A DNA stretch of 64,000 nt from an uncultured Ruminococcus sp. (GCA_964646975.1 CAZYGJ010000013.1:2466-66465); one strand, 5' to 3'. Positions 18,768 to 25,621 are shown, numbered from the stretch's first letter. Notes: a model not told the origin generated them from the letters alone. Made by a program: numbers and translations.

Positions 18768-21308
18768 TTATTCGTTCACTTCGGAATTATCGGAATTTTC
18801 AGCATCGTCGGCAACCTCTGCCGTCTTCTCACCGCTTTCCTCGGTCGGCTCTGTGCTTTCCTCCTCGGCTTCGTGCGGAGCACGAGCCACAGTCACAACC
18901 TTGTCGCCGTCGCCTGTTTTCATCAGCGTAACGCCCTTTGCGGGACGTGAACAAATTCTGATGGTTTCGGCGGCAATTCTGATGATAATTCCGTCCTGAG
19001 AAATGATTATAACGTCGTCGTCAAGGTCTACCACCTTGATTGCGGCAACATCGCCGTATTTTTCAACGTGATAGTTGGTAAGACCCTTGCCGCCTCTGCT
19101 TTGAACACGATAGTCGTCGGGACTTGAAAGTCTGCCGTAGCCTGTTTCGGACACGGTGAGAACATAACCGCCCTCACGCACAACGCTCATTCCCACAACG
19201 CAGTCGCCCTCCTTGAGCTTCAACGCCTTAACACCACGAGCCTGTCTGCCCATAGGACGAACGTCGGTTTCATTAAAGCGAATTGCAACGCCCTTTTTGG
19301 TTGCGACAATAACCTGACTGTTGCCGTCGGTCATTCTTACCCACGCAAGCTCGTCGCCGTCGTTTAATTCAAGTGCAATCAAGCCGCCCTTGCGTGCCGT
19401 GTTGTATGCACTGAGTGCAATCCTCTTGATAATGCCATGACGGGTTACCATAATCAGGTATTTTTCCTCGTCAAACTCAGGCACTCTTATCATTGAAGTC
19501 ACCTTTTCGTCGGTAGAAAGAGGCAAAAGATTAGCAATGTTAATGCCCTTTGACTGTCTGCTTCCTTCGGGAACTTCATAGCATTTAAGCCTGTAAACCC
19601 TGCCCTTGTCGGTAAAGAACAGAACATAGTCGTGCGAATTGATGATAAACATTTCGGAGGCAACGTCCTCCTCACGCCTTGACATACCCGAAACACCACG
19701 TCCGCCTCGGCGTTGCAGCTTGTAGGTGTCAACCGCAAGTCGCTTAACATAACCGAACTGAGTGAGCGTAAGCACACATTCCTCCTGCGGAATAAGGTCT
19801 TCAATGTCAACCTCACCGCTGACTGAGCAAATCTCGGTTCTTCTGGGGTCTGCATACTTGTTGCGAAGAGCGATAAGCTCCTCTTTAACGATTTCAAGCT
19901 TTCGTGTTTCGCTTGCAAGAATTTCAAGATATTCCTTAATCTTTGCCTGCAAAGTGGCAATTTCCTCGTCAATCTTGGCACGCTCCATATTTGTGAGCTG
20001 TCCCAATCGCATCTGAACAATCGCCTGAGCCTGAATCTCGTCAAGACCGAAGCGTTCCATAAGTGCGGCTCTTGCACTCGGCAAATCGGGGCTTTTGCGA
20101 ATCAATGCGATAACCTCGTCGATAAAGTCAATCGCAATCTTCAAGCCCTCCAAAATATGCTCTCTGTCCTGAGCCTTTTTAAGGTCAAACTCGGTGCGGC
20201 GGCGGATAACCTCCTCCTGAAACTCAATGTAGCACTTGAGCATTTCCTTGAGTGTAAGGATTTTCGGCTCGCCGTCAACAATGGCAAGCATAATCGCACC
20301 AAAGGTAGTTTGAAGCTGAGTATAAGAAAACAACTGGTTAAGCACGATTTGAGGCGAAGCGTCACGCTTTACGTCAATTTCAATGTGCATACCGATTCTG
20401 TCGGAGTGGTCTTCAATATTTGAAATGCCCTCAATCTTTTTGTCTTTAACAAGGTTTGCAATGGTTTCAATCAGCCTTGCCTTGTTCACCTTGTAGGGCA
20501 GCTCGGTTACAATAATCTTAAATCTGCCGTTTTTAGCCTCAACGATTTCGGTTTTGGCACGAACGGTAATCTTACCCCTACCTGTTGCATAAGCGGCTCT
20601 TATTCCGCTTCTGCCCATAATTATGCCGCCTGTCGGAAAGTCCGGACCCGGCAACGCCTCCATAAGCTCGGCAACCTCGGCGTCGGGGTTGTCAATCAGC
20701 GTGCAAACAGCGTCAATGGTTTCGCCCAGATTGTGGGGCGGAATTTCGGTTGCCATACCAACGGCAATACCGCTTGAACCGTTTACAAGCAGGTTTGGAA
20801 AACGGCTCGGCAAAACAACAGGCTCTTTAAGTCTGTCATCGTAGTTGGGGATAAAGTCAACTGTGTTTTTGTCGATGTCGGTGAGCATATCCATAGATAT
20901 TTTGCTCATTCTTGCTTCTGTGTAACGATAAGCAGCAGGCGGGTCACCGTCAACCGAACCAAAGTTTCCGTGACCGTCAACCAGCATATATCTCATCGAA
21001 AAGTCCTGAGCAAGTCGAACCATTGCGTCATAAACCGAGGTGTCACCGTGAGGGTGATACGAGCCCAGCACAGAACCAACGGTGTCGGCACATTTGTGGT
21101 AAGGCTTTGACGGCTCAAGACCTCTTTCAAACATTGTGTAGAGAATACGACGGTGAACAGGCTTCAAGCCGTCACGCACGTCGGGCAAGGCTCTTGAAAC
21201 GATAACACTCATCGAGTAATCAAGAAAGCTCTTACGCATCTCGCTTTGCAGGTCAACGTCAATTATTCTTTTTTCTGTCTGCTGTTCATTCATCTGTTCA
21301 TTATCCAT
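18768..21308 (-). CDS. gyrA: DNA gyrase subunit A
   Basis: [22 protein letters not shown] active-site region, GyrA-box QRRGGRG. Confidence 0.98.
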
Positions 21309-21335
21309 TTTTTACCTCTTTTATATAATCAGCGT

Positions 21336-21925
21336 AATTTTGTGTATTTCAACGTAGTTAAATTTGATGTGTTTACAAAATAGTGAACGCGTCCTAACAC
21401 TGCATTTTGGTTATAATTTAGATGTCACTTTCCAAGGCTATCATTGTTATTGAAATGTGCTACCTTTCAAGGCTCCCGCTTGAGGGGAGCTGTCAGCGAA
21501 GCTGACTGAGGGGTGGACACTGCATTACTTCCGTGATTATGAAGCTTTATTCCCTCAATAATGTTTTTGAAAAAATTTTAACTCCATTCTCTCAACTCAC
21601 CCTTCCGTCACGACTTCGTCGTGCCACCCTCCCTCAAGTGAGGGCTTGGTGCGTGTGGAAGCTTTGGTTTTAAATTTTAACGTTCATATAACATAAACGC
21701 TTTCAATCCCTCCGACAAAAATTTTTGTCTATTCAGCGTAGGCAGGTTATATTTAAATTCAACATAACATTCACGTTCTAACACTGCATTTAATTCAAGC
21801 ATTTTTGCCACCTCCCTTTACACAAGGGAGGCTTGGATTTTGCGGAAATGTTGAGCGAAAAATAATACTTTCAGCTATCAGAAAACTTTTCCACAGCTAT
21901 CAACTAAACCAAAATATGCAACTTC
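21336..21925. repeat. Mosaic REP-like array 4
   Basis: ~80 bp module, hairpin repeats near 21474, 21595 and 21713-21833, shared linkers; fills the thioesterase-gyrA spacer. Confidence 0.9.
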
Positions 21926-24450: not shown

Positions 24451-24477
24451 TTTTTACCTCTTTTATATAATCAGCGT

Positions 24478-25621
24478 AATTTTGTGTATTTCAACGTAGT
24501 TAAATTTGATATGTTTACAAAGTAGAGAATGCGTCCTAACACTGCATTTTGGTTATAATTAAAATGTCACTTTCCAAGGCTCCCTTGTGCAAAGGGAGTT
24601 TTTGTGCATTTCATCGCAGTAATGTTTGATGTGATTTCAAAGGCGTAAACACGTCCAAACACTGCATTTAATTCAAGCCTTTTGCCTGCAAAATGACTGA
24701 GGGATTGCTTTACCTCAATGTCTATATACTCACACACTCCACGAAAATTACTGTTTACTTCGTTATTAGGAATGCGAATTATTTTTAAGCTATACTCTTT
24801 AAGAAATTCAGAACGTTGTGCGTCCTTCTGAACATTACTGTCCTCGTAATGTTGTGAACCGTCCAATTCAATTACAAGCTTTGCTTCTGCACAATAAAAA
24901 TCTGCAATATATTTTCCGAGAATTTTTTGCCTTGAAAAACGTACGGGATATGAACGCAGAAAATCATACCAAAGATGCCTTTCTTCTTTTGTCATTTTTT
25001 TCCGCAGTTGCCTTGCAAACGGAACTAATTGCTTATTATGTTTTGGTTGCACAGCTACAATCCCTCCGTCAAAAATCTTCGATTTTTGCCACCTCCCTTT
25101 ACACAAGGGAGGCTTGAATTTTGCGGAAATGTTGAGCGAAAAATTATACTTTCAGCTATCAGAAAACTTTTCCACAGCTATCAATTTAATCTAAAGATAA
25201 AGCATTTCCAAGGCTCCCGCTTGAGGGGAGTTTTTGTGCATTTCATCGCAGTAATGTTTGATGTGATTTCAAAGGCGTAAACACGTCCAAACACTGCATT
25301 TAATTCAAGCCTTTTGCCTGCAAAATGACTGAGGGATTGCCTGTCGCAGTAACGTATTATTTAAATATGACATTTTCTACAATAGAATAACTGAAAACTT
25401 TTTCACAGCTATCATTGTTATTGAAATATGAACACTTCCAAGGCTCCCGCTTGAGGGGAGCTGTCAGCGAAGCTGACTGATGGGTGGACACTGCATTACT
25501 TCCGTGATTATGAAGCTTTATTCCCTCAATAATGTTTTTGAAAAAATTTTAACTCCATTCTCTCAACTCACCCTTCCGTCACGACTTCGTCGTGCCACCC
25601 TCCCTCAAGTGAGGGCTTGGT
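24478..25621. repeat. Mosaic REP-like array 5, containing the DUF559 gene
   Basis: Perfect 115 bp direct repeat 24594-24708 / 25226-25340; hairpin repeats on both sides of the nuclease ORF. Confidence 0.92.
24567..25052 (-). CDS. DUF559 (Vsr-like, PD-(D/E)XK) endonuclease embedded in a repeat array
   Basis: ARQLRKKMTKEERHLW..F.RQ..YIADFYC..KLVIELDGSQH..D..R..L..IIRIPN signature; probable GTG start at 25052; ~115 aa core plus a 46 aa repeat-encoded tail. Confidence 0.88.
   Translation of the reverse strand: MQPKHNKQLVPFARQLRKKMTKEERHLWYDFLRSYPVRFSRQKILGKYIADFYCAEAKLVIELDGSQHYEDSNVQKDAQRSEFLKEYSLKIIRIPNNEVNSNFRGVCEYIDIEVKQSLSHFAGKRLELNAVFGRVYAFEITSNITAMKCTKTPFAQGSLGK

Follow-up and report, generated by a model that had tools for sequence, protein, structure and literature searches.

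Repeat-anchored gene conversion probably placed the gyrA initiation region, with its first codons, at the start of gyrB in an uncultured Ruminococcus

In a 64,000-nucleotide (nt) stretch of DNA from an uncultured Ruminococcus of the R. bromii group (the whole of this stretch is referred to here as the window), the genes that encode the two subunits of DNA gyrase, gyrA and gyrB, lie on the minus strand and open with the same sequence. The window corresponds to positions 2466-66465 of contig C13 in a draft genome of 28 contigs and 1.9 Mb (G000), and the nearest species used for comparison are G015 and G027. The parts that make up the two gene starts are listed below (CDS, coding sequence; ORF, open reading frame; SD, Shine-Dalgarno sequence).

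18768..21308, minus strand: gyrA CDS, 846 amino acids (ORF list; Pfam DNA_topoisoIV, 1.4e-167, and DNA_gyraseA_C); probable donor
21283..21308, minus strand: first 26 nt of gyrA, native to gyrA; the codons are kept in the G015 and G027 orthologues
21309..21337, minus strand: native gyrA leader, 29 nt, TTACGCTGATTATATAAAAGAGGTAAAAA, with the SD GAGGT at 21314-21318, 5 nt before the ATG
21325..21352, minus strand: promoter-like site TTGAAA-16-GATTAT, gyrA copy (consensus match)
21338..21407, minus strand: repeat-unit core, gyrA copy, 70 nt of an 81-nt family (nhmmer, BLAST, unit alignment)
21408..21439, minus strand: prefix module, 32 nt (AGCCTTGGAAAGTGACAT.TAAATTATAACCA), found on 102-nt variants of the repeat; far end of a 157-nt shared block
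22420..24450, minus strand: gyrB CDS, 676 amino acids (ORF list; Pfam HATPase_c, DNA_gyraseB, Toprim and DNA_gyraseB_C); probable recipient
24425..24450, minus strand: apparent copy of gyrA codons 1-9, forming the GyrB N-terminus; native gyrB resumes at 24424 (AATTAAACAGGATGAAAAC...)
24451..24479, minus strand: apparent copy of the gyrA leader with its SD (GAGGT, 24456-24460), in place of the TTG-start initiation region of relatives
24467..24494, minus strand: promoter-like site TTGAAA-16-GATTAT, gyrB copy (consensus match)
24480..24581, minus strand: gyrB-side repeat unit, with core 24480-24549 (70 nt) and prefix 24550-24581 (32 nt); its first 31 nt equal the gyrA copy

Direct comparison of the two loci shows that 21283-21368 and 24425-24510 are identical over exactly 86 nt, a match that cannot arise by chance within 64 kb, and that the coding-side match ends at 21282/24424. 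The similarity extends away from the genes to 157 nt (21283-21439 versus 24425-24581, found as a repeat within the window; 96% identity) and there is none beyond either end of this block. Its six mismatches (gyrA copy: 21369, 21380, 21384, 21388, 21419 and 21421) all fall in the gene-distal 71 nt, a placement with P = 0.0086 if mismatches were distributed uniformly. Read in the direction of the genes, the block consists of the 32-nt prefix module, the 70-nt repeat core, the 29-nt leader and 26 nt of CDS; the identical tract thus holds the 26 nt of CDS, the leader with its SD and the repeat unit's first 31 nt. The shared coding stretch is ATG GAT AAT GAA CAG ATG AAT GAA CA, and both proteins open with MDNEQMNEQ, although the third base of codon 9 differs (CAG in gyrA, CAA in gyrB). 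GyrA and GyrB fall into separate Pfam families and are non-paralogous, and the similarity of their genes stops 26 nt into the CDS. A first reading of the window, made from the sequence alone (the sequence-only reading), had reported the 86-nt identity, the 157-nt similarity with about six mismatches, the common N-terminus and the identical ribosome-binding site (RBS), spacer and array start; the comparison of both loci agrees with it in all these details.

The gene-distal 102 nt of the block are members of a dispersed repeat family. Iterated nhmmer searches recovered 71 copies of the 81-nt unit in G000, and the true number is probably higher, since several contigs (C1, C13, C22, C23, C24 and C27) end within the repeat. 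The units are intergenic, occur at many unrelated sites and often form head-to-tail tandems with an 81-nt period. By BLAST, the other 55 nt of the block (leader plus codons) accompany only the gyrA and gyrB copies among the 71. The unit had no match in 40 other sampled species of the genus and its core none in viral contigs; in the JGI metagenomes the core was found in one contig (Ga0265292_1011296, at 2310-2330, an exact match to ACTGCGRTGAAATGCACAAAA). The window's own contig, of 67 kb, holds 34 of the 71 copies; it makes up 3.5% of the genome and carries dnaA-dnaN-recF-gyrB-gyrA.

Two broader roles for this family were considered and abandoned. A structured RNA or riboswitch-like leader was dropped, as a search of Rfam with positions 15000-30000 returned three tRNAs and no match for the unit, and RNAalifold found no consensus stem in 57 distinct units on either strand; hairpin modules are present elsewhere in the arrays. 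The family as a whole was likewise rejected as a promoter-delivery element, its units being oriented approximately 50:50 with respect to the downstream genes.

The repeats stand in front of the gyrase genes as parts of mosaic arrays. The spacer upstream of gyrA measures approximately 610 nt in G000 versus 89-210 nt in the nearest species, while the array-free spacer upstream of gyrB in those species, of approximately 130 nt, is without counterpart in G000. Synteny BLAST against G015 and G027 shows collinear flanks, with approximately 1.2 kb (array plus a DUF559 gene) added before gyrB and approximately 0.5 kb of array added before gyrA. Judging by these comparisons, the arrays before both genes are recent. 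The gyrA spacer of G015 carries, approximately 60-150 nt before the ATG, an insertion of a different, hairpin-type repeat (…GACTCCCCCTGAGTGGAGCTGTCACAAAGTGACTGAAGGGTGGGAGG…), and intergenic repeats seem to have been inserted repeatedly into the gyrA upstream spacer within this clade.

The direction of copying can be read from relatives, for which the gyrA and gyrB starts were recovered from 40 species of the genus. In the nearest species, gyrA begins with GAGGTAAAAA-ATG followed by MDNDQMNEQQ (G015) or MDNEQMNDQQ (G027), and gyrB begins with GAGGTAA(A/T)TATT-TTG, the codons TTG GAT AAY GAA AAG ATT and the protein sequence LDNEKIE. The shared leader plus start, 59 nt in all, matches the gyrA orthologues at 52 of 59 positions (G027) and 50 of 59 (G015), with an ungapped block of approximately 40 nt (AAAAGAGGTAAAAAATGGATAA.GA.CAGATGAATGA.CA) in the alignments; against the gyrB orthologues only 43-44 of the 59 positions match, with many gaps. 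Since leader and codons are kept in the gyrA orthologues and those of gyrB are different, the block is native to gyrA and was copied onto gyrB: on this evidence, gyrA is the donor and gyrB the recipient. The sequence-only reading had also proposed to compare the two N-termini in relatives; in the two nearest species gyrA has a conserved start, MDN(E/D)QMN(E/D)QQ, and gyrB one of LDNEKIE with TTG.

A resemblance between the two starts does exist across the genus, where (A/T)TG GAT AAY GAA starts are common to both genes in many species. Such starts are nevertheless uncommon: within G000, 10 of 1301 crude gene starts read x-D-N and only gyrA and gyrB read x-D-N-E. When the gyrA and gyrB upstream regions are aligned within each genome, the result is significant only in G000 and, weakly, in its nearest relatives G015, G027 and G012 (z 4.6-5.9), in which the similarity is confined to the SD, the start and GATAAYGAA. 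Both N-terminal tails are acidic and rich in Asn and Glu across the order, and for this reason the similarity of the starts is read as compositional and as a source of microhomology; ancient, repeated conversion behind the genus-wide (M/L)DN(E) starts was set aside on the same grounds. The GyrA N-terminus itself is built of tandem 12-nt units encoding xNEQ (GAT AAT GAA CAG / ATG AAT GAA CAG). Their number (window 21273-21308) varies between species, and G015 carries an extra unit (MDNDQ MNEQ QNEQ QSQK). Among approximately 30 species of the genus, the TTG start is used by gyrB in about two thirds and by gyrA in about one third, and in some distant species EKNL follows LDN in both proteins.

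Other assemblies of the same species contain the same arrangement. A search with GyrB residues 1-60 returned three near-identical proteins from other assemblies, and the chimeric gyrB start, that is, a gyrA-type leader and ATG before gyrB-specific sequence, is present in ENA ERZ27271038 and ERZ27271042 and in Logan SRR17221343 and SRR32508920. In all, the gyrB junction is reproduced four times, in different samples and by different assemblers, and the gyrA junction five times. An exact-protein look-up with the GyrB of the window gave no match, and a scan of the JGI metagenomes for the gyrB junction in both its alleles gave none.

Three strains (G000, ERZ27271038 and SRR32508920) were compared for concerted change. 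G000 has one repeat unit before the leader at both loci, and ERZ27271038 has two in tandem at both; in the latter strain gyrA and gyrB share 238 nt with 7 mismatches, of which the proximal 73 nt are identical. A run of A residues follows the same pattern, with TATAAAGAGG (3 A) at both genes in SRR32508920 versus TATAAAAGAGG (4 A) at both in G000. In the 100 nt that immediately precede the ATG, there are 4 and 5 differences between the gyrA and gyrB copies of one strain and 8 and 7 between strains at the same locus, the variant sites being shuffled among loci. The variation of the two loci in step between strains points to continuing exchange, and exchange among strains thus appears not to have ceased. 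A further allele of gyrB from the same species (P0004, in SRR32508920) has the gyrA-type RBS and ATG and reads MDNEQ|IKQ, without one 12-nt xNEQ unit, CAGATGAATGAA. Its junction indicates that the join can fall at either copy of AATGAACA, through different resolution points or later slippage.

Taken together, the placement of the mismatches, the junction in short homology and the joint change of the two loci argue for repeat-anchored recombination and not for the duplication or transposition of a single block. The explanation that we consider very probable is a repeat-anchored ectopic (non-allelic) gene conversion between the upstream regions of the two genes, within one Ruminococcus species of the R. 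bromii group. The species-specific 81-nt repeat, as part of mosaic arrays, has colonised the spacers before both genes. Recombination would then have been anchored upstream in two repeat copies, which offer approximately 70-100 nt of 92-94% homology, and resolved downstream in short homology within the acidic, Asn/Glu-rich N-terminal codons (TGGATAATGAACA / AATGAACA). The gyrA leader with its SD, the ATG and 26 nt of CDS have displaced the ancestral TTG-start initiation region of gyrB. The exchange was probably recurrent, with a gene-proximal tract that is identical within the genome and a distal part that is similar only at the level of the family. Over the distal 71 nt, the gyrB copy is closer to the family member at C13:53533 (67/71) than to the gyrA copy (65/71), so it seems that each locus already had a repeat copy of its own, both from one subfamily. 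An identical tract of 86 nt bounded by 71 nt of diverged homologous sequence is what is expected of ectopic conversion or concerted evolution, and the 86 nt fit a later conversion, whose tract begins within the repeat unit. The sequence-only reading had suggested that array copying or conversion carried flanking gene sequence with it; that suggestion gains support here and is refined by a probable direction, from gyrA to gyrB.

Several points weigh against this interpretation. The pattern among the four gyrA and gyrB sequences is a mosaic, with no clean clustering by strain, and gyrA of G000 differs from gyrB of ERZ27271038 at only 3 sites; the orthology of units between strains is, moreover, uncertain. 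A single conversion followed by replication slippage, in place of a second conversion, could explain the 12 nt by which the gyrB alleles differ. Purifying selection on a promoter or RBS, instead of recency, could likewise account for the perfect identity of the proximal tract. The motif at the junction, AATGAACA, is present in gyrA codons 3-5 and 7-9 and in gyrB allele P0004, the ancestral gyrB of the species being reconstructed and not observed. Support comes from assemblies, most of which break inside the repeat, and in this region promoter-like consensus matches do not exceed the expectation from shuffled sequence. Finally, RecA-dependent conversion, homology-facilitated illegitimate recombination and template switching cannot be distinguished from the sequence.

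The predicted consequence of the conversion concerns initiation. The block contains a sole promoter-like match, TTGAAA-16-GATTAT, with the -35 in the end of the repeat and the -10 within the gyrA leader proper, and neither initiation region has appreciable structure (-2.3 and -1.8 kcal/mol). The two subunits now share a putative core promoter, a short leader, the SD and its spacing, the ATG and the first nine residues, and with these elements in common their transcription and translation initiation should be closely matched. A shared control of both subunits at the promoter or in translation is accordingly a plausible prediction, the sequence being compatible with the equalised subunit translation that the sequence-only reading had put forward, and matched initiation may make up for the loss of gyrB's former upstream region to the array insertions. 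For GyrB, the result would be a harmless chimeric extension on an N-terminal tail that was already variable. A stronger claim, and the alternative that survives best, would be that the promoter, RBS and N-terminal codons form a selected co-expression cassette, kept identical in order to match the subunits of the A2B2 enzyme or to provide a supercoiling-responsive control; their sharing would then be more than a neutral side effect of recombination between repeats. The module is found at both genes in every same-species assembly recovered, the proximal 73-86 nt are perfectly identical in two strains in which the distal parts differ, and SD, spacing, start codon and early codons agree in both genes; in addition, the split of gyrB from its ancestral upstream region may have created the need for a new promoter. 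Selection of this kind is nevertheless rather doubtful, considering that the promoter-like match is not above chance, that relatives do well with initiation regions that differ (TTG versus ATG), that recency alone accounts for the identity, and that among the few strains sampled there is a gyrB allele with another junction. It is also unlikely that recurrent conversion serves to keep one promoter, one RBS and one N-terminal tag on both subunits in replacement of a disrupted ancestral co-transcription of gyrB, the thioesterase gene between them and gyrA; were this last proposal true, intergenic mosaic repeats would be a homogenising device for the co-regulation of unlinked, non-homologous genes.

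Transduction by a mobile element offers a different route to the same block: the repeat unit would have transposed from gyrA to gyrB together with 55 nt of gyrA flank, as in read-out transposition. That the family is multi-copy, lineage-specific, intergenic and often found at contig ends speaks for such an event, as does the fact that the copied flank directly adjoins one end of the element. The gyrA flank, however, is attached to none of the 69 other copies, neither terminal inverted repeats nor target-site duplications could be seen at the ends of the 157-nt block, and in its distal part the gyrB copy has a closer relative in the family than the gyrA copy. The position of the downstream junction, precisely within homologous codons, is predicted by recombination and not by transposition, and conversion tracts with variable end points in homology are already suggested by the comparison of strains. 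This route is hence considered quite improbable, and conversion anchored in the repeats remains the preferred account.

It is more improbable still that the shared codons are untranslated in gyrB, with the true start of GyrB farther downstream and the sharing restricted to DNA. The tail that precedes the conserved region of GyrB is indeed long, and within the genus it varies from 13 to 46 residues; gyrB also has an in-frame ATG (codon 6) and an in-frame TTG (codon 25). Yet only the first ATG of gyrB is preceded by an SD (GAGGT, with a 5-nt spacer), the internal candidates having none, while the indel between the gyrB alleles measures 12 nt and stays in frame, and in relatives gyrB is initiated from the corresponding position, likewise behind an SD. 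An assembly artefact, in which a contig path was mis-joined through the repeat and one gene start is false, is scarcely credible: the draft is fragmented and many of its contigs end within this repeat family, but the coding-side junction lies inside each gene and adjoins unique sequence, the ancestral starts share only approximately 11-13 nt, which is too little for a k-mer mis-join, the six differences between the copies mean that these were assembled separately and not collapsed, and four independent assemblies have the same chimeric gyrB start, so that mis-assembly at the repeat, the outcome that by the sequence-only reading would have undone its claim, is not borne out.

Some features of this locus recall known systems. 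Hybrid promoters are formed at the ends of insertion sequences, miniature inverted-repeat transposable elements or Correia elements, with the -35 in the element and the -10 in the target, and the consensus match at the gyrase genes is alike in that the repeat end supplies TTGAAA and the native gyrA leader the -10; unlike those elements, no transposase, terminal inverted repeat or target duplication was found for the gyr repeat. The bacterial interspersed mosaic elements BIME-2 of Escherichia coli, which consist of repetitive extragenic palindromic (REP) elements, are binding sites for gyrase. The arrays described here are also mosaic intergenic repeats and adjoin the gyrase genes themselves, but no palindrome or fold is conserved in the 81-nt unit, which has no sequence relation to BIME-2, is arranged head-to-tail and lies at dozens of unrelated loci; palindromes of the REP type in alternating orientation are not what these units form. 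With no conserved hairpin, no Rfam match and a unit present at so many unrelated sites, the link to gyrase binding that the sequence-only reading had raised is unsupported.

Among catalogued categories, putative mobile promoters come closest. These were defined as sequences of at least 80% identity over at least 50 nt within -150 to -50 of two genes in one genome, and some of them were associated with repeat elements, in a survey that filtered out matches running into the CDS (Matus-Garcia, Nijveen and van Passel, 2012; PMC3575422). Between -50 and -131 of gyrA and gyrB, 76 of 82 positions are identical (approximately 93%, with all 6 mismatches in this interval), which falls within that definition as far as sequence is concerned. 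Both cases consist of near-identical sequence before two unrelated genes of one genome. They differ in that the gyr block spans the RBS and 26 nt of CDS, that a donor and a recipient can be named, and that the genes encode two subunits of one enzyme; the promoter of the gyr block is putative.

Recombination end points within arrays accompany the replacement of adjacent gene sequence in the intergenic mosaic elements of Neisseria (NIMEs; Bentley et al., 2007, PMC1797815). The gyrase locus shares with them the modular intergenic arrays, the copy number that varies by strain and the location of one end of the recombination in the array. In contrast, NIMEs are made of dRS3 and RS elements and mainly mediate allelic exchange with imported DNA at genes for surface proteins, whereas the gyr case would be an ectopic exchange within one genome between non-homologous housekeeping genes, and the resemblance is architectural only. 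The dRS3 consensus ATTCCCN8GGGAAT, allowing at most 1 mismatch, has no match in the window. As to pathway, homology-facilitated illegitimate recombination was reportedly described by de Vries and Wackernagel in 2002 as the joining of DNA through a one-sided homologous anchor plus microhomology, during the uptake of foreign DNA in natural transformation. In the gyr case the repeat unit would be the long anchor, and the junction would lie in 8-13 nt of microhomology (AATGAACA / TGGATAATGAACA); the substrate, on the other hand, is intragenomic and the pathway is deduced from the junctions only.

The gyrase starts are therefore a new, well-documented case of phenomena already known, namely promoter capture and ectopic conversion anchored in repeats, with the unusual points that the case joins two gyrase subunits and includes translated codons. 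It provides a clean natural example, of known direction, in which a dispersed repeat anchor moved a complete initiation region, codons included, between non-homologous essential genes, and it indicates that promoter capture can reach into the CDS, a class that surveys of mobile promoters filter out. It also suggests that the lineage-specific expansion of a repeat can rewire housekeeping genes beside the replication origin, and that identical N-termini on unrelated proteins may be the footprint of recombination and not a functional motif. Should the shared block prove to be the active promoter, the species would offer a natural test of whether matched initiation matters for the stoichiometry of a heterotetramer. 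For annotation, breaks and mis-joins at these gene starts must be expected in metagenome assemblies.

The remaining features of the locus are the following.

21440..21930, strand not assigned: remaining mosaic array between the thioesterase gene and gyrA (synteny BLAST; repeat families D1, D4 and D7)
21931..22365, minus strand: 4HBT thioesterase gene between gyrB and gyrA (Pfam); position conserved in relatives
24567-25106, minus strand: DUF559 (Vsr-like endonuclease) gene upstream of gyrB, inside the array (Pfam DUF559, 1.5e-28)
24582..25636, strand not assigned: mosaic array upstream of gyrB, enclosing the DUF559 gene (synteny; families D1, D3 and D4)

The thioesterase gene is also the next gene after gyrB in other assemblies. 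Beyond the DUF559 gene, upstream of gyrB, lie recF, dnaN and dnaA, which identifies the locus as the classical origin-proximal dnaA-dnaN-recF-gyrB-gyrA region. All segments of the gyrA-side array recur on the gyrB side in another order (families D1, D3 and D4), for example 21429-21650 at 25400-25621 and 21801-21917 at 25082-25198, and the DUF559 gene is flanked by perfect direct repeats of 115 nt (24594-24708 and 25226-25340).

The order of genes around the arrays varies between assemblies. In ENA ERZ27271038 (k141_160804, 583-6119), the ROK and IMPDH (guaB) genes lie directly upstream of DUF559-gyrB; in G000, guaB-ROK (window 13511-15961) is located approximately 3 kb beyond gyrA, and the genes of the recF side stand upstream of the gyrB array. 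Either the arrays mediated a genuine rearrangement here, or the metagenome contig is a chimera joined across the repeats. Just downstream of gyrA and a 246-amino-acid ORF there are three tRNA genes (window 17679-17931, minus strand), followed by tandem units of the 81-nt repeat at 16911-17072.

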